A stretch of 46,457 nt of DNA, taken from positions 1-46,457 of IMG/VR virus record IMGVR_UViG_3300044453_000128; one strand, 5' to 3'. Below the pieces are notes generated by a model that saw nothing but the letters and a program-made list of their open reading frames with translations, was not told where the DNA came from and did no database searches. How positions within the stretch are numbered: the stretch's first letter is position 1; each line of letters opens with the position of its first letter. A program made the position numbers and the translations under genes. Source of the stretch: a virus (taxonomy: Duplodnaviria; Caudoviricetes). Below, piece after piece: positions 2,244 to 43,324 of the stretch.

Positions 2244-2264
2244 GCAATTTCCACAATTCATAAG

Positions 2265-2894: not shown

Positions 2895-3001
2895 AATTAT
2901 CAGCAACACTGGATATTTCATGATTTACAAAGAAAGGCTGAAATGGGAGGATCTTAAGTTATGATAGGTGCTCTAACCAGGTGGTTCATGTTCGGTGTCG
3001 T

Positions 3002-3214
3002 TATGTTTTGGCTGACCCGAGCAAAAGCACCTTTGACATACCTATTGATGCAATTGTGGTTGTGCAAACACCAGACAACTCTGCCTACTGCAAGCGATTC
3101 AGCGGCATGAAAGACGGCAGCCTTTTTTTAACAAGCGTGAACCAGGGCGTGGGAAGTGTCATCGTCGATGCCGAAGGCTGTCGGGTCATGCAAGTCGTGG
3201 GAGTGCTTTTTTGA
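3002..3214 (+). pseudogene. Diverged copy of the cI 3' end (last 70 codons)
   Basis: Colinear with 2031-2243; 59/70 aa identical by hand alignment, with many synonymous changes; no HTH and no catalytic Ser. Confidence 0.9.
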
Positions 3215-3217
3215 ATC

Positions 3218-4498: not shown

Positions 4499-4535
4499 TA
4501 GGTTGAAACTCTTTGCACCGATATTTGAGGGCCGA

Positions 4536-4675
4536 TCAACGAGGCTTACTGCAGGCGATTTAGCGGCATGAAGAATGGTAACCTTTTCTTAACTAGCGTT
4601 AACCAGGGGCGTGGTAGCATTATCGTCGATGACGAGGGTTGTCGGGTCATGCAAGTCGTGGGGGTACTCTTTTGA
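4536..4675 (+). pseudogene. Near-identical copy of the cI 3' end (140 bp)
   Basis: 135/140 identical to 2104-2243; its TGA overlaps the next ATG (TGATG). Confidence 0.92.
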
Positions 4676-5082
4676 TGGATATATTCGTTAAATCACTTCG
4701 CTACATAATATTTGCCCCTGTGGCGATTGCTGTTGGGTTTATATTAGAACGACTTTTCTTTCTATGGTCTATGAGTGCTATCTATGGCACCGGCCAACCG
4801 TCATATGGGTTTTATGCTTTCCCTACTGCAATCGTGGCAGCTTTGTTTGGCTCAACCGTTATTATTCTGCTCGCAGCCAAGATCGCACCAGCAAATAAGC
4901 ATTATGCAATAATAATAGCGGGCTCTATTCATTTAGCTTTACTCCTTGCTGCTTTCTCTGTTGGAATTCATATTCAAGAAGGGGTAATGTACTTCATTGT
5001 TCTAGCGGCGAAGGTGATAGGCACTTTCCTAACTGCTGCAGCATTTTTTGTTAACTTTAATAATGACGGCACTTCGAAGTGA
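4675..5082 (+). CDS. Integral membrane protein, about 4 TM (cargo C)
   Basis: ATG 4675 is coupled to the repeat's stop; protein is almost wholly hydrophobic. Confidence 0.75.
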   Translation: MDIFVKSLRYIIFAPVAIAVGFILERLFFLWSMSAIYGTGQPSYGFYAFPTAIVAALFGSTVIILLAAKIAPANKHYAIIIAGSIHLALLLAAFSVGIHIQEGVMYFIVLAAKVIGTFLTAAAFFVNFNNDGTSK

Positions 5083-5104
5083 TTTGATTGATGAGGAACA
5101 CTCA

Positions 5105-5659
5105 ATGGCAAGCGGATTATTTCAGCTTCTTTCTCTATTGCTTTTTCTTCTGTTTGCATCGCTTATTGCGTATGTAACGCTCAATAGCGTTGAGGTTTCA
5201 TCAAGCAGAACAATGGCCGATGTCTACCCATATGCTCGTTTAATTGTTGCGAACTTTGGATTTGCTGTGGTCTGTGGATTATTGTATGGATATAGGTATT
5301 TTTCTAATTTGTCTTCAAAGTCCGAGGGTTTTCATGACGGGAAACGAGGCGATGTGAGGTATTGCGCAAGCCCAGTAGGATTCATGGATGTGTTCTATTT
5401 CTTGCATTTTTCGGTCGCAATGAACTTCATTCTATTTCCAGCACCTTTGCTTGAGGGTCTGAGTTTAGAACATTTTCGGGATGTAATTCTCCCCTTGATT
5501 GCAGGCGTAATAGTATTAACGGTTCCATGGTTCCTTCACTCAGCTAATTATCCATACCCATCAAGCTATGTCGGCTGGGAGTCATTTAAGTGCAACCTTT
5601 GGTCATTAGCGATATTCGTGGTGTTTAAATTGTTTTTTGGTTTTATCTTTGGTTGGTAG
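5105..5659 (+). CDS. Integral membrane protein, about 5 TM (cargo D)
   Basis: GAGGA upstream of ATG 5105; multiple hydrophobic segments. Confidence 0.7.
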   Translation: MASGLFQLLSLLLFLLFASLIAYVTLNSVEVSSSRTMADVYPYARLIVANFGFAVVCGLLYGYRYFSNLSSKSEGFHDGKRGDVRYCASPVGFMDVFYFLHFSVAMNFILFPAPLLEGLSLEHFRDVILPLIAGVIVLTVPWFLHSANYPYPSSYVGWESFKCNLWSLAIFVVFKLFFGFIFGW

Positions 5660-5665
5660 TGTCCC

Positions 5666-7222
5666 GTGAAAGCCAAAGTCTCCACTCCAAGTCCCTGGAT
5701 AATCTACTGTCGTGTCTCCACTGAGGATCAGGCCCAAGGTGGCGTTAGCCTCGATGCACAGCTAAGCGCCTGTCGTGCCTGGGCAACGCTGAAGGGAGTT
5801 GAGGTTGCAGAGGAGATAATCGACGCGGGGCAATCTGCGAAGACTCTCAAGCGACCAGGAATGCAACGCCTGCTCAAGATGATTGAGGACGGCACCGTTG
5901 CTGGTGTTATCGCATGGCGACTTGACCGGTTAACGCGCTCGATTCGAGACTTGGTGACGCTGCTTGACTTATTGGGTCAATCTCGGGGTCTAGTGAGTGC
6001 AAGCGAACAACTCGACACAACGAGTGCAATGGGGCGCTTTGTCGTGCATATGCTTGGGGCCATCGCGCAGTGGGAGCGTGAGACCATTGGCGATCGAACG
6101 CGCATGGCTCGTCAGCACATCCAATCCCTTGGCTACTTTGCCGGTGGTAAGATTCCACCTGGCTTGGCCATCGAAAACGAGGGAGAACGCAAGCGGCTCA
6201 TTCGTGGGGAATATGCAGAGATATTAGAACGCATGTGGCCAATGGTTCTTGATGGCGACTCCATGGGAGACATTGCACGAGCGATGGAAGCTGCCGGCGT
6301 GCCGGGAAAATGGCCAACCGTGCGAGTTAACAATCTGCTAAAGTCACGACAGTACATCGGCCTGCTCGTTGATGAGTCAACGTACGAATCAGTGATCGCA
6401 CACCTCAAAACCAAGCAGAATCCTCAACGAAGGAAGGCAGCCGTGAAGATTGAACGATCACCAAAGCGCGAGTCGCCACTGAAGGGCTTGGTGCGCTGCC
6501 CAACATGCGGAAAGGCTATGGTGCAAGTAACGGCCAAAGGGCGCTCCGAGACCTACAATTACTTTCGTTGTACCGATAAAGCTAAGCAGATTTGCAGCCA
6601 AAAGGATATTCGATGCGAGAATGTCGAGGAACGGATCATAGGCGCCATATCTGAGGCGATCACGGGTGGGGCATACTTGGATGCCCTCGAGAAGGAGTTA
6701 GCGCCTCTGCGTGGCGCAGGGGCCAAGTACCAAGAAGAACTAACGGCATTGCTCTCCGAGAAAGAGCAACTTGCGGCACGTATCCGTGATTTGAGCCTCC
6801 ATGGTCCGCGGCCGGGAAGCGAAGCCTGGAAAATGTCGACAACCCCACTCTTTGAGCGAGCTGATGAACTTGGCCTGGAGATTGCGCGCTGCGAAGGATC
6901 GATTGCTGCGATTGGAATAGACAAGCAAGGCACTGAATGGGCGATGGAGGTCATCACGGATGCACTTGAACGACTCAAAAGGCCCGAGGTTATTGAGGAT
7001 CAAACAACCCTCCTTGAACATCAAAAGCAGGTTTTTTCCAGCATAATCAAGCAAGTGACCCCTGGCGGCAAAGAGGTTATTCTAGAGTTGTTTCTGCCCG
7101 AAAATGCAATCACCCCCGCCGGTGGCGAGGGTGAAGCAAAGACTTCTGGTTCGTTTAGAAGTCAAATTTGGCTCGGCGGAGTTAGTGGAAAACGAACCGT
7201 TTTGGTTCGAGTTGCAAGATAG
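5666..7222 (+). CDS. int: Large serine recombinase (phage integrase)
   Basis: IYCRVSTEDQ catalytic motif, RPGM and RLDRLTR motifs, recombinase domain, zinc ribbon (CPTCG...YFRC...C) and coiled coil. Confidence 0.95.
   Translation: MKAKVSTPSPWIIYCRVSTEDQAQGGVSLDAQLSACRAWATLKGVEVAEEIIDAGQSAKTLKRPGMQRLLKMIEDGTVAGVIAWRLDRLTRSIRDLVTLLDLLGQSRGLVSASEQLDTTSAMGRFVVHMLGAIAQWERETIGDRTRMARQHIQSLGYFAGGKIPPGLAIENEGERKRLIRGEYAEILERMWPMVLDGDSMGDIARAMEAAGVPGKWPTVRVNNLLKSRQYIGLLVDESTYESVIAHLKTKQNPQRRKAAVKIERSPKRESPLKGLVRCPTCGKAMVQVTAKGRSETYNYFRCTDKAKQICSQKDIRCENVEERIIGAISEAITGGAYLDALEKELAPLRGAGAKYQEELTALLSEKEQLAARIRDLSLHGPRPGSEAWKMSTTPLFERADELGLEIARCEGSIAAIGIDKQGTEWAMEVITDALERLKRPEVIEDQTTLLEHQKQVFSSIIKQVTPGGKEVILELFLPENAITPAGGEGEAKTSGSFRSQIWLGGVSGKRTVLVRVAR
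7148..7198. other. Candidate attP inside the integrase 3' end
   Basis: Inverted repeat GGTTCGTTT (7148-7156) / AAACGAACC (7190-7198) spanning 51 bp around TGGCTC, the reverse complement of a tRNA-like 3' end GAGCCA. Confidence 0.6.
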
Positions 7223-7262: not shown

Positions 7263-7685
7263 ATCAATAATATTCAGCACGCGAAACGAATCATTACTTG
7301 ATAAGCTATCGGACATGAAATCCAACGACCAACATTCATTGGGTGCAACCGGCACCGTGAGCGGGATTGGATTGCGATTTGGCAATCATTTCTTTGGTTT
7401 GATCCGTAAGTTCAGCTCCAGTTTCTTATAGACGCGATACACGCGTTTATGGTTCCAGGTGTAGCCTTGGTTGCGTATCCAAGCGTACATCAGTCCAAAT
7501 CCCCAACGAACGTGGGTCGCTGCCAGACGCAGTAACACGTCCTCAAGATTGCTATCCTTCCCAGTGTCGGGCACATGCCGATAACAGCCTTCGCTAATGG
7601 TAAACAGCCTGCAAGAGCGTCGTGCAGCAATCTTTCGATCAGCTACAGTAGCCTGGGCCAGCTCGCGACGCTCACCAGGCTTCAC
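7263..7685 (-). pseudogene. IS3 transposase OrfB, nonsense-interrupted and truncated
   Basis: WNHKRVYRVY motif; in-frame TGA at 7386-7388; frame continues PNECWSLDFMSD...RVLNIID and then breaks off. Confidence 0.88.
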
Positions 7686-7948
7686 AACTTTTTTTCGATC
7701 ACCTCCCGCAGGATGTCGCAGTCCATTTGGCTATCAGCATACATCTTCTTCAATCGTTGGTTTTCAGCTTCCAGCTCTTTCATTCGCTTGATCAGCGAAG
7801 CGTCCATACCGCCAAATTTCGAGCGCCATTTGTAAAATGAGGCTTGGCTCACGCTATGCTTCCGGCAGACATCAGCAACGCTGACACCGCCTTCGGCTTC
7901 CTTTAAAATGGCACAAATCTGTGATTCGGTAAAACGGCTTTTCTTCAT
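7682..7948 (-). CDS. IS3 transposase OrfA
   Basis: MKKSRFTESQI...FYKWRSKFGGM...ELEAENQRLKK signature. Confidence 0.95.
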   Translation of the reverse strand: MKKSRFTESQICAILKEAEGGVSVADVCRKHSVSQASFYKWRSKFGGMDASLIKRMKELEAENQRLKKMYADSQMDCDILREVIEKKL

Positions 7949-8106: not shown

Positions 8107-11100
8107 CTACCTACTCCACTTCTCTCTTACCCTCCTTGCTAAGCGAATAGCTCTCTCTTTCGCTTCGTCATCCTGCTTCTCGCGGGCTTGCTTTAGCAAG
8201 TTGCGGATCGCTTTTGCTTCGCCCTTGCTGTAGGCTCCTCGGCGCCGGGCTTCATCCATGACCCACTCAACATCAGCATCCGACCAAGGCGAAGGCTCGC
8301 GATAGAGACGGCCAAGGCCGGTCATATTGCCCAAAAACTTCCTCAAGGTGGTCTTGTCGTCTGGGGTGATCATCGTTCCCCAGCCGGCACCGTAGCCCCT
8401 GATAACGTGGTCGACCTTTCTGGGGTCAATGCTGTAACCACTTAACATGCTACCGATTTTGCCTAATTCCGAAGCACCCTCGAAGCCTTTACGCTTAGTA
8501 ACATCGCGCTCGTAGGTCTCCCAGTAGGGAACGATCGTGCGACCACGGAAAAGGTCGTAATTCATCATCGACTCAACAACAGGAGCGAAGCCCGAACTCA
8601 TTGAATTCCAGTCAAGAGGCAGGACTGCAGCAAAAGCACTGTTGCCGTAGTTTTTCCAAGCATCTTTGGCCAGGTCTTCACGGCCCACACTTTGCGCCGC
8701 AATCATCTCGGCCATTCGCCGGGCCCCGCTGAACATGAAGCCATATTCGTACGGCATAGGAATCATGATATTCTTGCCGTTTCCAACCGGAATAATGTGA
8801 TTGAAGTCGCGGAAGTAGGCCGGGTATTTCAGCCAACGCTCCCGGTCTTCCTCGTCCATCATCAGCAAGGCCGCAAGATAGCCCATCACCTGCATGGGCG
8901 CCAGGCGCGTCATGATGCGCAAAGCAAAGGCAGCATTGCCGCGTTCCTGTCGCGTCTGAGCTAAGCGGCGCAAGCCCTGCAAGGCTGGGTTCACGAAAAG
9001 CAAGACCGAGCCAAGTCCATACACGGCGGCACCCATTTCTGCGAAGTCGATCAGGCCGCGACCAGCATCAGCACCAATTAATCGCGCTTCGCCTTCGGAC
9101 TTCCCTTCTCGACGTGCCTTCTTGTAGGCAGCCAAGTATTCAACCTTACGGTTAATTGCATCCGACTCTTCGCCAATTTTTTCCCAGGCGCGCAGCATTT
9201 TACGCCAAGGCGTAATCAGGGTGCGGCCGGTACCGGTTTCGCTTTGCAGGTATTCAGCCATGCGCTGCCCGATTTGATCAGGCAACCGCTCCATCATACC
9301 AGCGAAGGCGCCGCCGGTTGAATGATAGGCCTCGTTCAGGGTCAAGCGCCCCAACTCGCCACGGCCTTTAGCCAGTTCTTCGGCCTTATTTTTCACGAAG
9401 TCTAAGCCAAGGCCGCTGTTGCCATCGATCATCCTGGCCTGTGCATCGCGGAACGGTTGCGCAACAAGGAAGGTGGGCGATCGAGTAATCATAAACCGCT
9501 GCAAGTTGACCAAGGCCCGCATCGTGCGCGAGAAAAGATCATCGCTGCCGGCTGCACCACGGTTATGCATGGCGTTGAGCGATGCATTCATGGCGCCGTT
9601 AAACACCCACATTTCATGCTTACCATCGCGGCGGAAGTGATGGATCTGCCGCCCTTCGTAGGTGTTCTTGCGCTCCCCGTCGTTTTCGCGCCAATGATCC
9701 TCGTATTCCTCTTTGCTGACTTGGAAGGCCAGGTCATGGAATTCGCCGCGCTTCTGGTTCTTGCCTGGCTTAAAGGCATCGGTTAAGGCAATCATAGCCC
9801 GGTTGCGATCTCCAACAGCGACCGCATTGGCAACCTGAACCAGTAGACCTTGGACCGGGTTGGCGACCTTGCGCGTCGATGACTTAAAACCCTTCGTTGG
9901 CAAATTGGCCGTAATAATGTCATCATCAAAAAGTCGGTGCATGTCGATGTAGGCAGGGACCGACTCTTCCTTGGCGATAAATGTTTTTCCGTCTGCTGTT
10001 TTCCAGGTATCGCCTTTCTGAACGGCTTTTGGATCAAGCGTATAGCGCACCACCTGACCTTTATTGGTGATTTCCACCGCCATCAATTCCTTGCGCATAT
10101 ACTTATTGTTCATGTCCTCGACTTGCTTGGCACTCAAGAAACCGGAATCATGTAAGTAGCCTAATACAAAATTAGAAATGACGGCGTAGCGACGCAAGAA
10201 TTCGTCATGCGCTTCGCGATGCGGATCATTGACCATCTCATCAAAGGCCTTTTTCGCCAACTTGTAATCGCTGGTCAATCCGCCACCGATACCAGTAATG
10301 CGCTGCGACCACTTCCGCCACACCTGAAAGCGAGCATTGCGGAAGGTAGCCAAAGAATCGCGCACAATGGCGTTTGAAAGCACCGCCCCTGTCGCCTTCG
10401 GCACATTAAATGGCTGCTTAGGGTTCATTGCCTTGCGGCTGGCTTTGATCAATTCACCACGCAGCGCGCTGACAAATTCTGGCCCGGTGTGCGCATTAAG
10501 CGCCTGCATTGCATCGTCCCGGTCTGGTTGGCTGCCTTTTGATTGTCGGATCAACCGCTCCATCATTTTGACTATTCGTAGCGCGATGGTGTTAGCCTGA
10601 TCAAAAGATAGGCCTTCCGGTGGTAATTCTGACAACGCGGCTGCTATATGGTCGGCTGGTTCAACACTCTCTAACTTGGCGCGCTGATATTCCAAATCGC
10701 CTTCTAGCCTTGTCCGTCGCACCACGCCTTTGGCAACGGCTCGGTCCATTTCGTGTTGGGCCTCTCTGGTTGTGAGGTGCCTGAGTGGTGCCAGGAGCCA
10801 GGCGAGATTGACTCGCTCTCCGGTCACAAGATCGAACAACGGCGAGCCATCAAAGGTGGCGAACCCCTTGCCGTACATCCACGATTCTAACTTACCGGCA
10901 ATGCCGCGACTCAATCGGTTGAGCAATCGGTAATCTTCAAACGGTGACAACTCATCAATCTCTCGGCCTTGGCGCGCTAGGCCCTCATGCCAGCCCTTGA
11001 TTGCCAAGTGTGCATCATTGAACCAGCGGAACGCCAGCCAATCACGCCACGAACCAGCGGTAAATTCACCCAGCGAACGCTTGTCCTTGGTCGAGAAAAC

Positions 11101-14100
11101 ATTGCGGCCATGTGCCAGGTCATTGAGCCAACCGATCGCCTTGCGTATTGGCGAGGTCTGACGCTTAATTAATTCCTCAAGCGCCTCGATCTGGTGTAGT
11201 GGTCGGTCTGCGGCCGGCATGCCTTCAATTTGCCGCACATAATTGCCGAATGACTCTAATGCCTCCAGCTGCTCTTGCGGCACATGCTCACGCATCAGGC
11301 GCTCTAACTCAGGAAACTTACTCGTGCTCGATGGCGCCACCGCCCAAGCCCGCATAAATTCTGCCCAGCCCTCATGCCGTAGGTATCGCTCGCGGTCTTC
11401 CTTGCGCAGCCCTGCCGGCGGTTTGCTGCCAAACTGCCCCCACCAAGCCAAGTCGGTGGCTGGAAGGCTTGGGAGGTCAACAAGGTCATTCAACGCCGCA
11501 ATGCGGTGGCTGATTTCGTGTGCCGTCGAATCCAAATCGCCTTCGTGCGCGATACCAGTAGCCCCGGTGGCCTCATTGAAATAACCACCCAAACCACGCG
11601 GAACAACAATACGTCCCTCGACCTTCGTTTGGCCAAGTCCCGCATCAGTCAAATCCTTCGCGAATTTCTTGATGCGATCAGCGTAATGCTCTAATCGCTT
11701 CGCCTTCGTCGGTATCGCGTCGATTTTCGGACGATCAGGCGTGTTCTTGCGTTTGGTGCGCTCAAACGGGCGCCCGGCTTCAGTGCGGCCAATTTCGCCG
11801 CGGCCGTCATCGTTGTCCTGCTTATCGAGGTCGCGGTCTGGTGAACCTGGGTCGATATCTCGTTGCGGAGAACCAAAACCTTTGTTAGGCTCTCCGCCAG
11901 ACCCATTGGTGTTGAACCCGGTGTCTCCCTCTGTCTCCGAAGTCGCGGAGTCATGGTGCCCGGGCTGAGCCGGTGGGTTTGCGCGTTTACTGTCATAAAA
12001 AAAGTCACCGTCGTAAAAGAAGTTACCGCTGGCGGTTTCTCGAACCATTGCAACGCCAAGTCCTTCGATGCCATTCACTGTTACAGATTTTTCGAACCGG
12101 TGTACCCCTCGAACATGTTCTCGGTTTTTCCGGTCAGGGTCGAAGCCCTTGTAGGTTCCCGTTTTGATAATGTCAGCTATCTGCGGCAGTGCAGAGAGGT
12201 CCATAACACTATGGCGCCCAGAAGTTGCATGCTTAATTCCGGCAACAGTAAACTGAATCTTTCCAACTTCTTCGCGTTCAATCGACCTTCCGACAAGGTT
12301 TTCTCTCGCCCATGTGCGAGAAGCCTTCATTAAATTTTTTTTGTCATTAAATGGGATTGTGGGGTTGCCTTCTGAAGTTTCATTGGCATCAGGCTCTTCC
12401 CGCGAACGCCCTGAATTTCGTTGTGGCGCGGCAAACTCAGTGTTAACATTTACCAAGTCTTCCTGGGTGTCGGCGGCGCTGTCTTTAACTGGTTGTGGTT
12501 CTGGATCAGCAACGGCGGTGGTGGTGGCGGGCTCGGCATATTCTGCGGGTTGCGGGCTTGGCGCTGGTTGCTTGACCGTTGCTTGACCGTTGTTTGATCG
12601 GCTATCCTTCCACTCGTCAACGGTCTGCATAAACTCTATTTTTAATAAAATCTTGGCTGTTCCGCTGCGCTCCCACGGCGTCCCGCGCAACCACCGCTCT
12701 GCTGTCATATCAGCAAAGATATTTGCATTTTCAATAAAATGCTTTTTATCTTCGGGTGTTTCAAGAGTTGAGATAAGACGGTTTGCTCGCTTAGCCATGT
12801 GTGACCGCATAATGAGCATATCAGGGTGACCTAAGTCCTGATCGCCTGGTTGTGGATTTGGCGCCGGTTGCTCGTCCTTTTCATGATCTTCGGTTACTTG
12901 ACCGTTGTTTGCCTGCTCCGGTTGCGCCGCTGCGTCAGCATTCGCCCGGCTGTACGCATTTTTGTACGCCTGCTCCAGCTGGGCATGCGCGCCGCGTTGA
13001 CCAACCATCCCGGTTGGCATGAGGATATTCGTTGCCAGGAATTTAGCGCGATCGCTCCAGGCCTTTTGCTCTTCTTCGGTTTCTGGCGCCTTGCCGTCGC
13101 GCCTGAAGTCTTCCGTGGCGCGTTTCTCGATGGCTTTGCGTAGGGTGTCAAAATTACCGATAGACCCGCTACCCACTGATTGTTGCTCAGTTGGAAGCGG
13201 GTTTTCGTTGGTTTTTACTGGCCTTTCTTCAATCGTCGCGGTAGGCACAGGACCAGAAACAGGAGCAGGGTGCGCTTGTTCGGTGGTTTCCTCGGCTGGT
13301 GCCGGGGCAAAGTTGGCAGGCGTTAAGCCGGCTTTGCCGCCGCGTAACTTCCCGTCAGCGGTGCGCGCAACCAAACGGCCATCGTCGCGCACTTCTTCGA
13401 TGGTGTAAACGCTGCCCTTGTGTTTCCCCTTCGTGACGACGACTTTTTCACCGGCTTTAACCTGCTTAAAGTCGGTGCCGCCAGGGGTGAAAATTGATTC
13501 AACCGTACCGACTGGCGCGGTGTTTTCCGTTTTGTCGCTCACTTCCTCGGGTTTTTGATCGACAATGCCAACAGGTTGCGGTGGTGCATCTGGCGCAGCA
13601 TCGCCCTGAACCAACTCGATCCTGCCAGGGCGCCCCGCTGGTGCTGGCGTTGGTTTCCATTTTGGCTCATTGGACTGCGGGACCTCGTTAATTTCCCACG
13701 GCATATCACCAGTAAACTGTGGGCCAAACACACCCTCAGTATCAACGCCAGTTGTGGCGGCGCCCTTCGCCATCTGCTCGGCCTTTTGCGTTTGGTCTGC
13801 CAATGCATCGGCTTCTTGCCGGGCCGCGATCATCTTCTGCTCGTGCTTGGCCAATTCCGCCGCGTACGGGTGCTCTAATTCCGTATTGGCTGGGGCTGAA
13901 GGGTTTTGCGGGTTGCGCGGCTGGCGTAGGAGTTGCGCTGTCAGGATCACCTTGTTTGCCTGCTCTGCGACCGGTTGCGCCGCTGCTCTGGCGACTCCCG
14001 CCACATCGCTCGCAATGCCGGTAGCGCCATCTCTGACGATGCCACCAATCGCCGCAACTTCCTCGGCCAACGTTTTCGCATGCGGTGCAATTACCTCGCC

Positions 14101-15174
14101 GGCCTTGAGTGCGCCTTTTGCCGCGACTTGTATCCCTGCGCCTGCGGCCTGGGCAAGATCCTGCCCGGCTACTTGCGCAATTTCTGGTGCTCGTGCACCG
14201 CCGCTTACTGCGGTCCCTAAGACGCCACCAATAGCACCTTCGTAGAACATTGCTTCAGCGGCTTCTTGAAAAGTTTTGCCATCATTGATTGCTTGTAAAA
14301 AGCCTGCGCTGCCTTCTTCCGCGTAGTCGCCCAAACCGTTTGTTATCAAGAATTTCGCGACATCATTTTTCGTGGCTAATTTAGCAGCATCATCGAGACC
14401 CGCCAGAGCCTCTACTCCGTATTTGCCTCCAACATATGTCGTTAATCCATCAATCAGGCCAGCGGAAATCGCGCTACGGTAGCGTTCGGCACCTTCTTTA
14501 TGTCGGTTATCGGCAAAGTTAATGCCTGCACCTTGAGCCCCGGCCACCGCGGCCATTGCGGGCAAGCCTAGAGGAGCGGCAAGTATTGCCGGCGCGAGCG
14601 ATGGTACCGCTCCTGCAACATCAGTCGCGAAGTTACTACCTTTGTCAATTATTTGCGCATACGCTTCCCTGGGCAGAACTTGATCCACATGACCGCTTGG
14701 GATGCCACTTTGCCATGCCTGTAATTGTCTTGAGGTGTCATCAATCGACGAATATGCTGCATGAGCCATTCGTTTAATCTGCCGTCTGAGTTTATTCCTA
14801 CCCCAAATCTGCATCGGTAGCGAGTCACTTGCGACCTCAGCTGCGGCGAATGGCATCTTGCTAAAATTAGAAAGGTTATCGATTACCCTGGCTTGCGTAG
14901 TTGCCCATGCATCTCCGCTTGCGCCATTTGACGGGGTGTAGTGGTACAGAGTGCCGACGTCACCAAGAAAGTCTAATTCGCGTTGCTTTTCACCACCATT
15001 TAGGCGCTCAACGAGTTTTCCAACAAATTGCTCAGTCTGGGGTACTCCAAGCATGCCAAGGGTCTGTAGGGCCCGCTCGTAAACTTGATCGCCGTGCGCA
15101 AAATACCCACCTTTTTCATCTAAAAATGACTGAAAACTTGATAAGGCGACATCAGCGTAGGGATGTTGTTCCAT
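8107..15174 (-). CDS. Giant polyvalent / internal virion (ejection) protein
   Basis: 2355 aa; last gene of the structural operon; KOW-like motif, LPD3-like segment, HEISH zincin motif and LPD38-like C-terminus, separated by low-complexity linkers. Confidence 0.75.
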   Translation of the reverse strand: MEQHPYADVALSSFQSFLDEKGGYFAHGDQVYERALQTLGMLGVPQTEQFVGKLVERLNGGEKQRELDFLGDVGTLYHYTPSNGASGDAWATTQARVIDNLSNFSKMPFAAAEVASDSLPMQIWGRNKLRRQIKRMAHAAYSSIDDTSRQLQAWQSGIPSGHVDQVLPREAYAQIIDKGSNFATDVAGAVPSLAPAILAAPLGLPAMAAVAGAQGAGINFADNRHKEGAERYRSAISAGLIDGLTTYVGGKYGVEALAGLDDAAKLATKNDVAKFLITNGLGDYAEEGSAGFLQAINDGKTFQEAAEAMFYEGAIGGVLGTAVSGGARAPEIAQVAGQDLAQAAGAGIQVAAKGALKAGEVIAPHAKTLAEEVAAIGGIVRDGATGIASDVAGVARAAAQPVAEQANKVILTAQLLRQPRNPQNPSAPANTELEHPYAAELAKHEQKMIAARQEADALADQTQKAEQMAKGAATTGVDTEGVFGPQFTGDMPWEINEVPQSNEPKWKPTPAPAGRPGRIELVQGDAAPDAPPQPVGIVDQKPEEVSDKTENTAPVGTVESIFTPGGTDFKQVKAGEKVVVTKGKHKGSVYTIEEVRDDGRLVARTADGKLRGGKAGLTPANFAPAPAEETTEQAHPAPVSGPVPTATIEERPVKTNENPLPTEQQSVGSGSIGNFDTLRKAIEKRATEDFRRDGKAPETEEEQKAWSDRAKFLATNILMPTGMVGQRGAHAQLEQAYKNAYSRANADAAAQPEQANNGQVTEDHEKDEQPAPNPQPGDQDLGHPDMLIMRSHMAKRANRLISTLETPEDKKHFIENANIFADMTAERWLRGTPWERSGTAKILLKIEFMQTVDEWKDSRSNNGQATVKQPAPSPQPAEYAEPATTTAVADPEPQPVKDSAADTQEDLVNVNTEFAAPQRNSGRSREEPDANETSEGNPTIPFNDKKNLMKASRTWARENLVGRSIEREEVGKIQFTVAGIKHATSGRHSVMDLSALPQIADIIKTGTYKGFDPDRKNREHVRGVHRFEKSVTVNGIEGLGVAMVRETASGNFFYDGDFFYDSKRANPPAQPGHHDSATSETEGDTGFNTNGSGGEPNKGFGSPQRDIDPGSPDRDLDKQDNDDGRGEIGRTEAGRPFERTKRKNTPDRPKIDAIPTKAKRLEHYADRIKKFAKDLTDAGLGQTKVEGRIVVPRGLGGYFNEATGATGIAHEGDLDSTAHEISHRIAALNDLVDLPSLPATDLAWWGQFGSKPPAGLRKEDRERYLRHEGWAEFMRAWAVAPSSTSKFPELERLMREHVPQEQLEALESFGNYVRQIEGMPAADRPLHQIEALEELIKRQTSPIRKAIGWLNDLAHGRNVFSTKDKRSLGEFTAGSWRDWLAFRWFNDAHLAIKGWHEGLARQGREIDELSPFEDYRLLNRLSRGIAGKLESWMYGKGFATFDGSPLFDLVTGERVNLAWLLAPLRHLTTREAQHEMDRAVAKGVVRRTRLEGDLEYQRAKLESVEPADHIAAALSELPPEGLSFDQANTIALRIVKMMERLIRQSKGSQPDRDDAMQALNAHTGPEFVSALRGELIKASRKAMNPKQPFNVPKATGAVLSNAIVRDSLATFRNARFQVWRKWSQRITGIGGGLTSDYKLAKKAFDEMVNDPHREAHDEFLRRYAVISNFVLGYLHDSGFLSAKQVEDMNNKYMRKELMAVEITNKGQVVRYTLDPKAVQKGDTWKTADGKTFIAKEESVPAYIDMHRLFDDDIITANLPTKGFKSSTRKVANPVQGLLVQVANAVAVGDRNRAMIALTDAFKPGKNQKRGEFHDLAFQVSKEEYEDHWRENDGERKNTYEGRQIHHFRRDGKHEMWVFNGAMNASLNAMHNRGAAGSDDLFSRTMRALVNLQRFMITRSPTFLVAQPFRDAQARMIDGNSGLGLDFVKNKAEELAKGRGELGRLTLNEAYHSTGGAFAGMMERLPDQIGQRMAEYLQSETGTGRTLITPWRKMLRAWEKIGEESDAINRKVEYLAAYKKARREGKSEGEARLIGADAGRGLIDFAEMGAAVYGLGSVLLFVNPALQGLRRLAQTRQERGNAAFALRIMTRLAPMQVMGYLAALLMMDEEDRERWLKYPAYFRDFNHIIPVGNGKNIMIPMPYEYGFMFSGARRMAEMIAAQSVGREDLAKDAWKNYGNSAFAAVLPLDWNSMSSGFAPVVESMMNYDLFRGRTIVPYWETYERDVTKRKGFEGASELGKIGSMLSGYSIDPRKVDHVIRGYGAGWGTMITPDDKTTLRKFLGNMTGLGRLYREPSPWSDADVEWVMDEARRRGAYSKGEAKAIRNLLKQAREKQDDEAKERAIRLARRVREKWSR

Positions 15175-35098: not shown

Positions 35099-35379
35099 AG
35101 GTCTTCAGCCTTTTTTACGGCAGCAAACCGCTTGTCGCTCTGAATCAACGCTGCAACCAATTCATCCGGGTTCTTCGCACGATCAATGATCTGCATATCC
35201 TGCGGGTGAAAGTTCCGCGCCCCGTTCTCGTCGATAAACACAATTGCGCCGCACTTATTCACGGTAGGCGACATGCTTGGTAGCAATTTATCGTGCTTTT
35301 CAGCGTCATAGATCGCACTGGCACACCCTTGGTAATGCCAGTTGATGATTCGCTGTTTTCGTTCTGGATTAAACGCCAT
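35095..35379 (-). CDS. Hypothetical protein
   Basis: AAGGAG RBS; overlaps terS and terL. Confidence 0.55.
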   Translation of the reverse strand: MAFNPERKQRIINWHYQGCASAIYDAEKHDKLLPSMSPTVNKCGAIVFIDENGARNFHPQDMQIIDRAKNPDELVAALIQSDKRFAAVKKAEDL

Positions 35380-36001
35380 TCGTCTCTCCTTGCGCAATTC
35401 TCACGGCATTCTGCCAGTCTAATGGATCGCCAACTCTTGCCGGTGCCTCGATAACTTTGGCGCTGTCCTGGCCCTTCTGCTTCGCGTCTCGCTCGGCCTC
35501 GGCCTCTTTGCGCAGCGTCACATGCAGGTCGGCCAGGTGCTTTGCCGCCTTGGTTCGTTCATTCAGGTTTGACGGCACCTCGATCGCCATGCCATCGCAG
35601 ACCGTGATGTCTTTCACTTGGCCGCGCATTACCTTGGTCAGGTAATCGCCAACCTCATTCAGGTCGGCCACCCTCCCGGCTGCTGCCTGGTTGACCTCAC
35701 GAATCTCGCTATTGATCTGGTTTTGCTCTTCACGTAGCGCCTGCCTTCGCGCTGTTTCGATCGCTGCTTCCACGTCGGCCGCCACCAGTTTCAGCACAGC
35801 GGCCATTCTCGGCTTATTGACCGCGTTCACCAATGCGGGACGTGTTACTCCCTGTTCTTCCGCGACCTCTTTCAGCGCATGTGCATTCGTCGGCCATCCC
35901 GCTCGGATCAACAGCGTGATGCGATGGCGCTGTCCCTGCGTCAGTTTTTGCATCTCCGCAATTGTAGGGGGTGTTAGCGGGCCATCGCTCATTTCCCCCA
36001 T
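35369..36001 (-). CDS. terS: Terminase small subunit
   Basis: VADLNEVGDYLTKVMRGQ...ERTKAAKHL pattern; lies upstream of terL; start 36001 or 35992. Confidence 0.75.
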   Translation of the reverse strand: MGEMSDGPLTPPTIAEMQKLTQGQRHRITLLIRAGWPTNAHALKEVAEEQGVTRPALVNAVNKPRMAAVLKLVAADVEAAIETARRQALREEQNQINSEIREVNQAAAGRVADLNEVGDYLTKVMRGQVKDITVCDGMAIEVPSNLNERTKAAKHLADLHVTLRKEAEAERDAKQKGQDSAKVIEAPARVGDPLDWQNAVRIAQGETNGV

Positions 36002-36066
36002 ATACACAAGGGTTCGTGAATTGGCAAGCCTCCTTGAAACCCCTGAAACCCCCACTCAAACCCCAC

Positions 36067-36093
36067 AAAAAACCCCGCCACATTGACGGGGTT
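36067..36093 (-). terminator. Intrinsic terminator closing the early operon / cassette array
   Basis: Minus strand reads AACCCCGTCAATGTGGCGGGGTTTTTT. Confidence 0.8.
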
Positions 36094-36106
36094 AGCGAGG
36101 CTGCAC

Positions 36107-36151
36107 CTACAACCTGGGTTAGCGAGGTGTCTCGCTAAACAAGTGTTGGGC
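36107..36151 (+). other. attC-like site 1 (short, 45 bp, atypical)
   Basis: CTACAAC-N5-TTAGCGAG-gtgt-CTCGCTAA-N6-GTTGGGC. Confidence 0.55.
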
Positions 36152-36450
36152 GTCAATATTTACTAAGAAGTTCGCCGGTTTATTCCGAATCAACTTGTAA
36201 TTGGTTTCCCGATATTCGACTCCCTACTTCATTGGGCTAAATCCTGGCTTCCCACCTTTAAATCTTGGCCATCAACTTGCTCATCAACCGCCCATTACCT
36301 GACCACTCATCAACATTTGGTGACTCGTACCCAGGGCTGACTGGCTAAAATTGATTGCAAACCGTAGGACGCAGCCGAAGGTAGACGGATACTTCGAAAT
36401 TGCGGATCATTGGCACATCCATCCGGTGGTTCCAAACGCATTCAAGCTAC

Positions 36451-36622
36451 GCCCAACACGGGTTTACAGAAAACGGGAGCCCCTAGCGATGCTTTGTAAC
36501 TTGGATACGCAATCTTCAAACCATCGGTATGTGGGTCGCCTTCGGCGCCATTATCCACATGCCTATCTTCCAATCAGCCTGACACAGACCGTGTCGGGGC
36601 CCCCTGAAACTGAACGTTGGGC
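36451..36622 (+). other. attC site 2 (172 bp)
   Basis: GCCCAAC...GTTGGGC core sites; L boxes GTTTACAG / CTGAAAC; colinear homologue of site 3. Confidence 0.8.
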
Positions 36623-36654
36623 AACCAAACTAAACCGATATAGAAAGATTCAAG

Positions 36655-37008
36655 ATGAAGAAAGCAATAAAATACTACTTGATAGGAACATCCATCTTCT
36701 TCCATGCGATCATATTAATATCCTTGTTCTGGATTATTCCATTCTTCAATAATGCCTCTACTGCTGGAAAATCATGGGCAGAATCCGCCATGAATCCCGA
36801 CAAAGGTATTATCGAAGACGTTTCAACCCTGGAACAAGATGGCCTAAAGTATCAAGGGTATAAAATAAACTATAACGACAGAACACTGTATACGATGGGA
36901 ACTGGAAATGATGAATTTGAAATTGGACAAACCGTGAATGTAATGGTAAATGCTCACCCCTACGGACCTTTAAAAACATTAATGGTAACAATTACTCCAG
37001 AACGGTAG
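36655..37008 (+). CDS. Cassette gene: membrane-anchored small OB-like protein
   Basis: AT-rich; N-terminal TM; starts 32 nt after GTTGGGC and its TAG overlaps the GCCCAAC of the next attC, which is classic cassette layout. Confidence 0.75.
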   Translation: MKKAIKYYLIGTSIFFHAIILISLFWIIPFFNNASTAGKSWAESAMNPDKGIIEDVSTLEQDGLKYQGYKINYNDRTLYTMGTGNDEFEIGQTVNVMVNAHPYGPLKTLMVTITPER

Positions 37009-37179
37009 CCCAACAAAGTGTTCAAGAAAACGGGAGCCACTAGCGATGTTTTCCAACTCAAGCCTTTTTAACTACAGTGCCCCGGTGGCCGTGCCGCCTA
37101 CGGCGCCATTATCCGTCCACCTGCTCGCGATCAAACTTGTAAAGTTTGCCTCGTGGCCCCCTTAACGTTGACGTTGGGT
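37008..37179 (+). other. attC site 3 (172 bp)
   Basis: GCCCAAC...GTTGGGT core sites; L boxes GTTCAAG / CTTAAC; compensatory stem change relative to site 2. Confidence 0.82.
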
Positions 37180-37182
37180 TCG

Positions 37183-37482
37183 TTATTCGGTTGATCCATC
37201 ACAGTCTATTGCATGAAGGATCGACCTAGCAAGCAATCGCGCAGCCCTGTGATCTAAGTTGACCAATGATACTGGCATGAATGAATCGACAACATTCTCG
37301 TTCCATTGTTCAAGTTGAATTTGAATGCAATTATTATCGGCATTAGTGACATTTAGATATGCCTCTCCGTAATCATCATCCGGTTCAATCCGATATTTTC
37401 GTAAACCTGCTGCTAATGGTTCTTTGGCCTGCATGTATATTGGGGACATGCAGGATATTCTGACTTGCATGTAGTGTTCCAT
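37183..37482 (-). CDS. Cassette gene, hypothetical 99 aa (inverted relative to attC)
   Basis: GGAAGGA RBS then ATG 37482; fills the space between attC3 and attC4. Confidence 0.65.
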   Translation of the reverse strand: MEHYMQVRISCMSPIYMQAKEPLAAGLRKYRIEPDDDYGEAYLNVTNADNNCIQIQLEQWNENVVDSFMPVSLVNLDHRAARLLARSILHAIDCDGSTE

Positions 37483-37506
37483 ATTTTCGTTCCTTCCGTT
37501 AATTCC

Positions 37507-37566
37507 ACCCAACAACCGGATCAAGTCAGGCGAGCGCAGAGCGCCGCCTAATCCGTTAGGTTGGGT
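37507..37566 (+). other. attC site 4 (60 bp)
   Basis: ACCCAAC...GGATCAAG...GGCGAGCGC-aga-GCGCCGCC-TAATCC...GTTGGGT. Confidence 0.82.
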
Positions 37567-38396
37567 TACTGTAATAAATGGTATGCAACGGCTGCCTGAA
37601 GTGGCACCCATGCGTCTCCTAGTGATTCGATGCGCTTGCTCCGATCGGCCATCCCATCCACCACTCGCAAAAGTCCGGGCTCAATCGGATTCCAACTGTA
37701 TGCTTGGCAGTATCGCGCAGCGGCTTCGATCGCTTTGCCGCCTGCTTCCGATAACCCTCCGCGCTGTATGGCGATTTGTAATCCGTCGCGCAAAGCGTTG
37801 GCAGAAGCTGGCGTAATTTTCCCGACAGTCGCAGTATTTTCTTCCCTCGACTGGTCGAATAGGCAATGGTTCGGCAATCCGCTGCTAGCAAGGTCGGCAT
37901 ACAAGAACCATCTGTCTCTTCGGTGGGGGGCTTCAACATCAGACGCGGCAATGATTCCGTCTCTTGGTCGGTAGCCTCGATTGCGAAGGTCTGCCAATAC
38001 AACATCTCGCCCTTTGGTTTTGATTCTGGGGCTGTTTTCAAAGAAAATCCAGGATGGTCGAAAAGCGTCGATTGCCTGGATGCATCCTCTGTAAGTCGGG
38101 CCTGTCTCTCTTCCGCCAAGGCCCGCTCCTTCGCCTGCTGCGCTAATATCTTTACAAGAAAAACCTGCTGCGATTCCGTCCACTTTTTCATGGACTGCGG
38201 CATGCCACTCTGTACTGGCAATGTCTCCGCATACGACGGTAAGGTGTGGCCACCAGCCTGCCTTGGCTTCGCTTGCCACAGCACGACAACGCCACTCGTC
38301 GGCATCGAGGGCGAACACTGATTTCCATCCAAGGATTTCGCCGGTCCACAAGGAACCGCCTCGTCCTGAGCAAAGGTGCATGACATTCTGTTTCAC
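37566..38396 (-). CDS. C5-cytosine DNA methyltransferase, alpha polypeptide (cassette gene)
   Basis: Motif I HLCSGRGG, IV GFSCKDIS, VI FFENSP, VIII APHRRDRWF, X SLGDAWVP; probable GTG start 38396; stop abuts attC4. Confidence 0.85.
   Translation of the reverse strand: MKQNVMHLCSGRGGSLWTGEILGWKSVFALDADEWRCRAVASEAKAGWWPHLTVVCGDIASTEWHAAVHEKVDGIAAGFSCKDISAAGEGAGLGGRETGPTYRGCIQAIDAFRPSWIFFENSPRIKTKGRDVVLADLRNRGYRPRDGIIAASDVEAPHRRDRWFLYADLASSGLPNHCLFDQSREENTATVGKITPASANALRDGLQIAIQRGGLSEAGGKAIEAAARYCQAYSWNPIEPGLLRVVDGMADRSKRIESLGDAWVPLQAAVAYHLLQ
37619..37900 (-). CDS. Putative methyltransferase beta polypeptide in an overlapping frame
   Basis: Alternative frame encodes LLPTLCATDYK and RLSPDFCEWWMGWP (motif IX-like), which the main frame lacks; start uncertain (frame open to 38386). 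Confidence 0.65.
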   Translation of the reverse strand: MPTLLAADCRTIAYSTSRGKKILRLSGKLRQLLPTLCATDYKSPYSAEGYRKQAAKRSKPLRDTAKHTVGIRLSPDFCEWWMGWPIGASASNH

Positions 38397-38419
38397 TCCG
38401 TTTCCTTCGTTAAATCGTA

Positions 38420-38480
38420 ACCCAACAACGCCGTTCAACTGGGAGCGCCTAGCGGCGCCCCGTTACCGTTGAGGTTGGGT
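38420..38480 (+). other. attC site 5 (61 bp)
   Basis: ACCCAAC...GTTCAAC-TGGGAGCGCC-tagc-GGCGCCCC-GTTACC...GTTGGGT. Confidence 0.82.
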
Positions 38481-38517
38481 TACTTGGTTGCCCGGTCTGC
38501 GCATTTGGTGCAATACT

Positions 38518-38631
38518 CTAATCCATCTCAGATGGCTGAACTTTAATCGGCCTGCGCGTTTGAGTCTTGCGGCCGTCCAAAATAGCGCGGACCATTTCGG
38601 CGTTAAATAAAATCGGTTTCTCGTTTGGCAT
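38518..38631 (-). pseudogene. Truncated conserved phage protein (ASCH/PUA-like N-terminus)
   Basis: [30 protein letters not shown] matches a widespread phage N-terminal motif, but the frame stops after 37 aa next to attC5. Confidence 0.75.
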
Positions 38632-38634
38632 GGT

Positions 38635-38958
38635 TCAACCTGACTTTTCTCTAAGTGATAACGGCTCGCACGACTTACATATTTCCAGAATATGATCTAA
38701 CCATTCATGAAGCGTTTTCTTGCTACAAAACTCATGGTTGTGTGCGTGTTGCGCGATCTGTCTGACAAATTCTGACAGCGCTTCATTTCGCTTCATGATC
38801 TGTTTGCTCAACTCAATCGCCTCATCGCATTGCTGCTCACATTCGTAACCAATCTCAATGCTTTCCTTGATTACGTTGCGTTCTTCCTGGGTCAGCTGCT
38901 CCTTGTCGAGCAATGCGAGTATCGCCTTCTGCTCCCTTGATAATTCGTCTTGGCTCAT
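38635..38958 (-). CDS. Hypothetical protein
   Basis: GGAGG RBS; ATGA overlap with the upstream gene. Confidence 0.6.
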   Translation of the reverse strand: MSQDELSREQKAILALLDKEQLTQEERNVIKESIEIGYECEQQCDEAIELSKQIMKRNEALSEFVRQIAQHAHNHEFCSKKTLHEWLDHILEICKSCEPLSLREKSG

Positions 38959-40814: not shown

Positions 40815-41435
40815 TTAGTTGCTAAAAAATGACGAGAATTTTTCACCGCCGTATTGATCCGTGGTCATCGCAATCATTTCTGCAATCGTCGCCTTTTTGT
40901 CGGTGGTGAATCCCTTGGACTCAACAAAGCCGCGAACGCCGGCTGCGCATGCGCCGGTAATAGACCGATAGCATTCAACGGCTTCTTCGAAGCTAAATTG
41001 ATGACTCAACTCAAGACCCTTATATCTTTCCGTTGAGCGATCTGATATTTTATAAATCAAATCCTTCTTGGCTTCATCAAGCGTATCACCGTGTGCCCAC
41101 TTAGATCCGTCCGTGACGGCATATTGAATTTTAGTTTTTCCGATATTCCGAGTTCTGTAGACGCCGCCTTTGTGATCGACGACCTCCGAGAATATCCCAT
41201 CGATAAGGATGTATTTACCGTTTTGCCAGCTCAGTGGATATTTCGGTTCATCAATGTGCTCTGGCTCCTCAATCTGCGTGCCGCGCAGGTCGAGATAGCC
41301 GCCAACCGTGAGACCGTCAGGCAATGCGGTGATCTGCGTGCCGCGCAGGTCGAGAGGGCCGCCAACCGTGAGACCGTCAGGGCCATCTGTGTATTCGATT
41401 TCGTATTTTTTTAGAAATTCAATTAAATTAGTCAT
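40815..41435 (-). CDS. Phage protein with short LRR-like repeats
   Basis: PDGLTVGGxLDLRGTQI x2; C-terminal AHGDTL.EA..DL..K...YR.ITGAC..G motif. Confidence 0.75.
   Translation of the reverse strand: MTNLIEFLKKYEIEYTDGPDGLTVGGPLDLRGTQITALPDGLTVGGYLDLRGTQIEEPEHIDEPKYPLSWQNGKYILIDGIFSEVVDHKGGVYRTRNIGKTKIQYAVTDGSKWAHGDTLDEAKKDLIYKISDRSTERYKGLELSHQFSFEEAVECYRSITGACAAGVRGFVESKGFTTDKKATIAEMIAMTTDQYGGEKFSSFFSN
41272..41381. repeat. 60-bp-period tandem repeat (about 1.8 copies)
   Basis: 41272-41321 and 41332-41381 differ at 2 nt. Confidence 0.9.
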
Positions 41436-42457: not shown

Positions 42458-43324
42458 TTAATCCTTGACGTCGTAGTTTTTATCAAGCCACTGAGTCGCT
42501 TGGCTCAGGTAAATCGGACCGTCTCCACGAGTTGGGTCTTTGAGCAATGAATCGTACATGTCGCAAAGCGCTCCCCATCCGTCCGAGGTGTTTCCCTCGT
42601 AGCGTCGAAACAAAGCCTCCCAGTGACGGTCCTCGTCCCGGCCAACGAAGATCCGTGGATGGGTCATCCTGAAGTCTGGCCAGTTTCTTTTTCGCTGATC
42701 AAAGTCCGGTGGTGTTTCGTTTTCACTGAAAGGATCAAAAGATCCTTGAGTGGGTGTGGGTGGGTGAACTTTTTCGCCCGTAGAGCGGGCACCCGCACGC
42801 TCTATATGATTCTGACTCTGATTCTGATTGGTTGCTGTTTCGTTGGAACGCAAAGGCAACGCCCGTTCAACACCCGTTGCTGTTTCGTTGGAACGCAAAG
42901 GCAACGCCCGTTCAACACCCGTTGCTGTTTCGTTGGAACGCAAAGGCAACGCCCGTTCAACACCCGTTGCTGTTTCGTTGGATTTTTTCTGTTTTTTGCG
43001 GTTACGCCGTGCTTCAGCCGATGCTTTGCCAGCTTTAATGGCACTTTGGTATTTCCTAGCAACATCGTCCAAATCACGATTGATCCGCTCATGTTGCCAG
43101 TGTGTTGGGGTTACGTTGAAGAAGCGTTGCAACTTGATTTCAACGGTTGTCCAACGGTCGTTGGCCAGTCGTGTAATCATTTGCAGGTCTTCCGTTGGAA
43201 GGGGTCCTCCATTCTTCCAATAGGCTAACATTAAGAGAAAGTAAGCCCCATGCTCTTCGGTGTTTAAGTGCATAGTGTCGGCCAGGTAATCGCCTGGATA
43301 GAATGGCATGTAAGCGATGCCCAT
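42458..43324 (-). CDS. Replication initiator (YdaU/DUF1376-like)
   Basis: YMPFYPGDYLADTMHL..EEHGAY.LL...YW signature; internal tandem repeats. Confidence 0.85.
   Translation of the reverse strand: MGIAYMPFYPGDYLADTMHLNTEEHGAYFLLMLAYWKNGGPLPTEDLQMITRLANDRWTTVEIKLQRFFNVTPTHWQHERINRDLDDVARKYQSAIKAGKASAEARRNRKKQKKSNETATGVERALPLRSNETATGVERALPLRSNETATGVERALPLRSNETATNQNQSQNHIERAGARSTGEKVHPPTPTQGSFDPFSENETPPDFDQRKRNWPDFRMTHPRIFVGRDEDRHWEALFRRYEGNTSDGWGALCDMYDSLLKDPTRGDGPIYLSQATQWLDKNYDVKD
42831..42982. repeat. 45-bp perfect tandem repeats x3.4, candidate iterons / origin
   Basis: GTTGCTGTTTCGTTGGAACGCAAAGGCAACGCCCGTTCAACACCC at 42831, 42876 and 42921, partial at 42966. Confidence 0.9.

Follow-up and report, generated by a model that had tools for sequence, protein, structure and literature searches.

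An integrase-less, integron-like array with inverted gene cassettes at the far end of a predicted phage early operon

Why should a phage that encodes no integron integrase carry a row of integron recombination sites, and why should genes between these sites point against them? The question is raised by the window, that is, the whole stretch of 46,457 bp analysed here, which is an entire virus record, rated complete. A profile search of the window returned the gene set of a temperate phage (serine integrase, repressor, terminase, SSB, ERF). Within 8000-46457 our home-made gene caller placed 37 genes on the minus strand and one on the plus strand, the latter being the 117-aa gene of cassette 2 described below. 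The complete record gave no match to the IntI family (TIGR02249) at any point, and no match at all to a tyrosine recombinase. Searching IMG/VR with terL and SSB for close phage relatives yielded nothing beyond two identical copies, and the two IMG/VR assemblies of the phage are identical across 8.8 kb. Since the best genome matches of the phage SSB are Planctomycetota MAGs (55-73% identity, 24 of 64 parts scanned), the host is probably a member of the Planctomycetota. IntI is encoded in 30 of the 48 genomes of the SSB-matched class, and IntI frames of the candidate class (L423-L433) have long N-terminal open extensions, giving frames of 450-510 aa.

Several features of the phage outside the array were also recorded. 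These are a polyvalent protein of 2355 aa with LPD3 and LPD38 domains (8107-15174), a partial copy (2981-3214) of the C-terminal peptidase domain of the repressor (1338-2243), a 60-bp duplication within a leucine-rich-repeat-like gene (41272-41381), and perfect 45-bp tandem repeats within the DUF1376 replication gene (42831-42982) that may be origin iterons. Just past the serine integrase, at 7386-7948, lie two short ORFs that we take to resemble an IS3-family transposase pair, the second ORF being short.

Four attC sites lie within 2.0 kb between the early genes and terS, where 500 shuffles of 36000-38700 gave a mean of 0.006 sites and a maximum of one. With at least two attC sites within 3 kb and no integrase nearby, as called by a home-made attC scanner, the array has the composition by which a CALIN is recognized. 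Its features, together with the flanking gene and the distal end, are as follows:

35369-36001, minus strand: terminase small subunit (phrog_51, E 7e-5), the first gene past the terminator, with terL next
36066-36093, minus strand: candidate intrinsic terminator closing the early operon, 10-bp stem and T run
36107-36151, plus strand: attI-like entry site, crossover G/TT at 36145
36146-36616, plus strand: cassette 1, 471 bp, gene-less (no internal ORF above 43 aa), probably host-type
36451-36622, plus strand: attC1, 172 bp, long family
36655-37008, plus strand: gene of cassette 2 (36617-37173), 117 aa, hydrophobic N-terminus, standard polarity
37008-37179, plus strand: attC2, 172 bp, long family, 80% column identity to attC1
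37183-37491, minus strand: gene of cassette 3 (37174-37560), 102 aa, inverted, own RBS beside R''
37507-37566, plus strand: attC3, 60 bp
37566-38396, minus strand: gene of cassette 4 (37561-38474), C5 cytosine methyltransferase alpha chain (PF00145, E 7e-18; phrog_363, E 5e-31)
37619-38386, minus strand: predicted beta chain in an overlapping frame within the alpha gene, 255 aa, motif IX-like end (phrog_1008, E 5e-8)
38420-38480, plus strand: attC4, 61 bp, crossover 38474, three extra-helical bases on the R''-L'' arm
38475-38631, minus strand: probable deletion scar at the distal end, with a 37-aa N-terminal piece of phrog_874 at 38518-38631

The attC sites contain the boxes R''-L''...L'-R', where L'' holds an additional C and the R''-L'' arm has other extra bases too; attC4 is canonical, and the L''/L' pairing of attC3 is imperfect (5/7). 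According to PMC2727003, attC polarity is defined by the extra-helical bases. The polarity of attC3 and attC4 is plus, because their extra bases lie on the left arm of the plus strand and the bottom strand folds better (-20.0 versus -16.9 kcal/mol for attC3, -19.8 versus -17.7 kcal/mol for attC4), and a shared plus polarity was confirmed for all four sites. Furthermore, each R'' is fully complementary to the head R' of its own cassette, over 9, 7, 7 and 10 nt in cassettes 1-4. Two other readings of the polarity were discarded. The junctions seen between array variants fall at plus-strand R' cores and rule out a minus-polarity array, and misinsertion of whole cassettes via top-strand recombination was ruled out as the attC would then flip too, yet the extra bases are found on the normal arm. 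Separately, a search with an attC4-type pattern returned two non-self loci, both within genes, which were taken as chance.

Set against this polarity, co-orientation of the gene with the attC top strand holds in cassette 2 and fails in cassettes 3 and 4. The first-pass annotation had claimed as much: the cassettes with short attC sites (60 and 61 bp) do carry minus-strand genes, at 37183-37491 and 37566-38396, and the gene of the long-attC cassette 2 is in normal polarity on the plus strand, antisense to the operon. The stops were correctly placed at or near the core site as well, that of cassette 4 overlapping the core heptamer by one base and that of cassette 3 ending 3 nt off. The statement that each inverted gene has its own RBS just inside the attC requires amendment; both quoted motifs exist, but they are located 4-5 nt inside the cassette beside R'' and not within the attC. 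Absent from that annotation were the overlapping beta frame, the attI-like site, the lack of a gene in cassette 1 and the scar past attC4.

The entry site is a short perfect hairpin without extra-helical bases, with a 12-bp direct repeat (36089 and 36116), and it has the same spacing as the attI of Shewanella given in PMC9892861. It aligns gap-free to attI candidates beside IntI in five Planctomycetota MAGs (5 of 18 hand-picked candidates), and also to a similar site in a second phage, G478/L651. Every array variant seen starts at G/TT 36145. The site, itself a hairpin, could alternatively be a trimmed attC. A search with the entry-site pattern gave four non-self loci, none with similarity or attC, and near the site no match to a sigma-70-like promoter (Pc) was obtained in a type of scan that is weak. 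At the proximal ends of the viral arrays L472, L516 and L482 the core is immediately preceded by a short hairpin or a direct repeat, as in the window. The terminator that had been placed at the end of the early operon does have its stem (36071-36093, minus strand); the scan, however, found 14 such sites against 14.6 expected, no better than chance, so that it is retained here as a candidate.

Cassettes 1 and 2 probably derive from a host integron, because diverged copies of the 172-bp attC abound in the same runs. There, the long attC and cassette 1 recur with other flanks, several of the copies have an ATG shortly past the core, as expected of a host array of standard cassettes, and paralogues of cassette 1 with about 87% identity were found in runs X1, X4 and X6. 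The exact long-attC pattern gave no match in the GTDB scan or in the 48 genomes of the SSB-matched class, and cassette 1-2 DNA matched 0 of 5 and 0 of 48 genomes. Rfam gave no match for cassette 1, whose segment 36146-36450 could carry a promoter or small RNA. The proteins of cassettes 2 and 3 belong to no Pfam, PHROG or PADLOC family. For the cassette 3 protein one convincing distant relative was obtained (P0204, 36% identity, E 1.4e-7), and the match P0205, a repeat protein, and the ESM Atlas matches, which were under 0.9, were disregarded. At the distal end, the phrog_874 piece is followed by a short frame that shares with the cassette genes a stop overlapping the core, here that of attC4, and the sequence past attC4 probably marks a deletion.

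The gene of cassette 4 is the typical phage methyltransferase that it had been taken for, matching phrog_363 and belonging to a family common in cultured phages (400 records). Its alpha chain has the catalytic motif S-C rather than P-C, which is common to its clade, and a sequence search of PDB returned no match for it. A motif IX-like segment in another frame inside the alpha gene was counted in 121 of 159 homologue loci, using a pattern taken to represent motif IX. None of these 159 loci (79 viral, 80 metagenome) is a cassette, with at least 250 nt of flank on each side in 110 of them; the homologues are therefore not confined to chromosomal integrons in standard orientation, the distribution that had been named as contrary to a phage-adapted pool. 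Five lone attC-like matches within 450 nt of homologues were taken as chance, none occurring on both sides. Six other viral contigs, including a near-identical pair, do have family members at 28-35% identity that adjoin an attC in inverted polarity. The architecture recalls M.EcoHK31I, a heterodimeric C5 methyltransferase with motif IX in a second frame (PMC2836561). As in that enzyme, alpha carries motifs I-VIII as well as X, and the motif IX-like segment lies wholly inside the alpha gene; unlike it, the present one is an orphan, phage-borne and cassette-packaged, the likeness being one of architecture and not of direct sequence comparison.

Array content was compared in 7 of 13 listed sequencing runs, of which X1-X3 are possible sources of the window; contig depths were not taken as copy numbers. 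In one of the seven, X6, the entry site is joined straight to cassette 3 and cassettes 1-2 are absent: 36144 and 37173 meet at the shared core in a contig of 1405 bp, with 105 nt on the short side. The junction was seen at 85% as well as at 97% likeness, its phage flanks are nearly identical, and the depth over the cassette 2 gene is 0. This is the same phage without cassettes 1-2, and the junction shows movement of whole cassettes with crossover at G/TT, gain and loss being indistinguishable. A second downstream sequence in X6 starts at the attC4 core. In X5 the entry site runs into a different sequence, a near-copy of the HNH cassette of an unrelated phage; by eye, 28 of 30 letters match the start of the inverted HNH cassette of G478/L651, which points to cassette exchange between different phages. 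Weaker evidence comes from X4, where a related entry site is joined to cassette 4 (short side 24 nt, 85% likeness). The arrangement of the window itself is bridged by contigs from the entry site to cassette 1 (X1, X2, X4, X5), from attC2 to cassette 3 (X2, X4, X5) and from cassettes 3-4 to the early genes (X2, X5). A long attC is nowhere covered in full by one contig, and the order of cassettes 1 and 2 follows from three identical assemblies and overlapping pieces. Outside the array, at 35126-35424, a low-depth contig in X1 swaps 297 bp between terS and terL for 20 other letters.

The survey of other viruses started from L146, a methyltransferase locus with attC sites all opposite to its genes. 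This phage-like early region (L146:1607-3146) has three scanner-called attC sites and one hand-read site; one of its cassettes houses several small genes, and the methyltransferase itself is attC-free. IMG/VR was scanned with two strict attC patterns, followed by the home-made attC scanner and gene caller. Scan 1 reached 19 of 64 parts of IMG/VR; 50 short loci of scan 1 and 2 + 2 sites inside genes were dropped before counting, as were the 64 of 80 scan-2 loci without a counted site. The 249 attC sites of scan 1 (81 loci) comprised 211 with an inverted gene, 7 standard and 31 uncalled. Scan 2 (80 loci, 16 with sites) gave 59 sites, 48 inverted, 7 standard and 4 uncalled, one of these standard calls being a known miscall (L651). 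In total, 308 viral sites were obtained, with the gene inverted in 259, standard in 14 and uncalled in 35, and at the level of sequence clusters 69 of 80 were mostly inverted, 5 standard and 6 tied. The same pipeline applied to a cellular control, which consists of Planctomycetota only and is not matched to the hosts of the viral set, returned 46 standard, 4 inverted and 25 uncalled among 75 sites (55 loci). Inversion among called sites thus amounts to 259/273 viral versus 4/50 cellular (Fisher p ~2e-38, the sites not being independent). The pipeline missed the cassette 3 gene and miscalled L651 as standard; it found standard polarity in TJE1, in agreement with the annotation of that phage, and in P12002L the scanner found no site. 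In viral contigs inverted genes predominate, and in cellular integrons they are uncommon.

A perfect match of the site to its own cassette core was found for 185 of 233 viral cassettes versus 59 of 233 junctions, and the better own-core match marks the cassettes as shuffled. Among neighbouring inverted genes in viral arrays, 74 of 214 stop at the same offset inside the core as the cassette 4 gene. PHROG matches were obtained for 64 of 139 inverted viral genes, confirming the called strand of these, versus 13 of 61 cellular cassette genes (control cargo set: 2 of 64 genes not sent to PHROGs, one integrase fragment dropped). DNA methyltransferases make up 16 of the 139 versus 1 of the 61 by our own count, and other inverted cargo includes Mom-like, queuine tRNA-ribosyltransferase, HNH, RNA ligase and pyrophosphohydrolase genes. 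With 259 of 308 sites inverted in viruses versus 4 of 75 in cells, and six viral contigs with distant relatives of the methyltransferase in inverted polarity, the phage-adapted pool of inverted cassettes proposed in the first-pass annotation is supported. Two further points are not supported. Inverted viral attC sites have a median length of 66 bp versus 90 bp, but short attC sites are no hallmark, as 11 of the 46 cellular sites with standard polarity do not exceed 70 bp either. A bearing on the origin of chromosomal cassettes is without support, because PHROGs gave no match for any of the three inverted cellular genes submitted; the only visible direction is that of host-type cassettes in phage.

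A full IntI was found in 1 of 50 viral records (G445) and in none of the 14 near-complete ones, weaker tyrosine-recombinase matches in 7 of 50, and 13 of 50 matched one terminase family; the IntI and terminase searches omitted 12 of 62 loci. In G445 the full IntI (479 bits) belongs to a canonical divergent layout of intI, attI and inverted cassettes, all transcribed one way, the first cassette encoding an alpha/beta C5 methyltransferase 30% identical to that of the window; the contig also carries tail, lysis and integrase genes. Its array is L610 (G445:C1:14000-22914), 1560-7140, with intI co-oriented with the cassette genes, and a reverse transcriptase lies beside the tail genes (L609:6617-7615, phrog_1423). 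G478/L651 is a lambda-like phage with no protein in common with the window, in which an entry site very like that of the window is followed by inverted genes and short attC sites. Its inverted cassettes (L651:2471-4501) lie between terL and a head-tail adaptor gene, the second attC is 51 bp, and a plus-strand two-gene pair, the second gene being Arc-like, stands just before the entry site. L613 (G440:C1:1-20000) has two separate inverted attC arrays, one per divergent operon, and L615 looks similar. Dozens of other uncultured phages show the layout of inverted genes with attC sites.

In the reading that we consider likely, the far end of the early operon houses an integron platform without an integrase, consisting of an attI-like site and swappable cassettes that are recombined by a host IntI, with the phage-type cassettes reversed so that they would be read by the early transcript. 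The host, probably one of the Planctomycetota, would supply IntI in trans. New cassettes, each bringing its own RBS, would join at the end farthest from the promoter, immediately ahead of the terminator, and because the entry site is this promoter-distal end, additions would leave the upstream genes undisturbed. Judging from gene order, the early transcript would read through inverted cassettes 3-4, while host-type cassettes entering the same site (cassettes 1-2) would land antisense and be silent. The inverted cassettes may form a pool that passes between phages and abounds in DNA-modification genes, and the methyltransferase cassettes may shield phage DNA from restriction, as PMC9892861 proposes for phage orphan methyltransferases.

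Inversion might instead reflect how cassettes are made and not selection, if attC sites are placed around native early genes in situ and the phage acts as a factory of cassettes. The closest relatives of the methyltransferase (53-59%) are ordinary genes with no attC, the copy in the cassette ends short of the last residues of its family and stops inside the core, the same offset recurs in the 74 neighbouring genes counted above, and in L146 an attC-free methyltransferase has cassettes for neighbours. As no gene was found at high identity in both states, flanked by attC and free of it, as an intermediate would be, and sharing between unrelated phages implies that at least some cassettes arrive ready-made, we regard this as unlikely to be the whole account, although it is compatible with a host-recombined platform as an earlier step. 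We think it improbable that a prophage once captured a passive fragment of a host integron, with the inverted cassettes as rare host ones and the variation as excision decay. Cassettes 1-2 are indeed host-type and could have been lost by simple excision, cellular arrays do contain short attC sites and a few inverted genes (4 of 75), and phage capture of integron fragments has been published (PMC9892861). Such a fragment would nevertheless be hard to reconcile with the frequencies of inversion among called sites and their agreement in 69 of 80 clusters, with phage-type cargo, and with differing first cassettes behind the same entry site.

An equally slim chance is given to attC-like sites worked by a different, phage-specific recombinase. 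That 49 of 50 viral records are without a full IntI and seven have weaker tyrosine-recombinase matches would suit it; the canonical geometry of the extra-helical bases, the host-type cassettes at the same entry site, the canonical IntI beside the inverted array of G445 and the lack of any tyrosine-recombinase match in the window phage speak against it. Finally, host cassettes might have been spliced into a phage contig during assembly via repeated attC sites, the long attC sites being high-copy repeats in the runs that no single contig spans. The contigs that bridge the entry site to cassette 1, attC2 to cassette 3 and cassettes 3-4 to the early genes, as well as the identity of the two IMG/VR assemblies across 8.8 kb, make an artefact of this kind very improbable, and it would leave cassettes 3-4 unexplained.

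The preferred reading, a platform recombined by host IntI, permits a bolder extension, which we offer tentatively, as somewhat less likely than not. Phages would run a mirror-image integron on host IntI, in which a library of reversed cassettes, with many genes for DNA modification and other counter-defence, is swapped between unrelated phages at phage attI sites. Polarity would insulate both ways, keeping host anti-phage cassettes silent in the phage and phage cassettes silent in the host, and such arrays would perhaps make new cassettes from phage genes. Chromosomal integrons are reported to stock anti-phage systems (bioRxiv 10.1101/2024.07.02.601686). If a widespread phage counterpart exists, the integrase would be a two-sided tool of the arms race, and phages would gain modular shuffling of early accessory genes. 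The window locus lends itself to a test of the idea, since one entry site serves host-type as well as phage-type cassettes and the variants differ by exact cassettes. In addition, gene families that occur in plain phage form and also in reversed cassettes, such as the methyltransferase family, provide a handle on how cassettes form.

Phage-borne CALINs with DNA methyltransferase genes have already been published (Qi et al. 2023, PMC9892861), and the window array resembles these in having an attC cluster without IntI beside a terminator (a candidate one in the window), methyltransferase genes and similar site lengths. The cassettes of TJE1, however, have standard polarity, and divergent sites are mentioned solely for P12002L (PMC9892861), whereas the window has genes inverted relative to their own attC, an attI-like head, a mix of host and phage cassettes and variation from run to run. 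No description of inverted phage arrays was found in the literature searched, which included few subscription papers; inverted cases may be present among the 21 phages whose strands are annotated with PMC9892861. With sedentary integrons, as described in PMC8946536, PMC2727003 and PMC4889954, the locus shares the attC anatomy, G/TT crossover, own-core complementarity and a simple attI-like site, and the newest position adjoins the entry site. Unlike these integrons, with their order intI-attI-Pc-cassettes, the window has no intI and its inverted genes would need no Pc; predicted transcription runs towards the entry site, so that the newest cassette would be promoter-distal. It differs also from 'inverted integrase' integrons, in which intI is flipped and not the cassette genes. 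Cassette 1, ORF-less and multi-copy, is like the gene-less cassettes of Vibrionaceae superintegrons described in bioRxiv 10.1101/2023.11.21.568050, albeit in a different host group. In combination, the array is a CALIN by definition and integron-like in its working, and departs from the typical system in intI and gene orientation; what the locus adds is a mixed host and phage array and its variation between runs.
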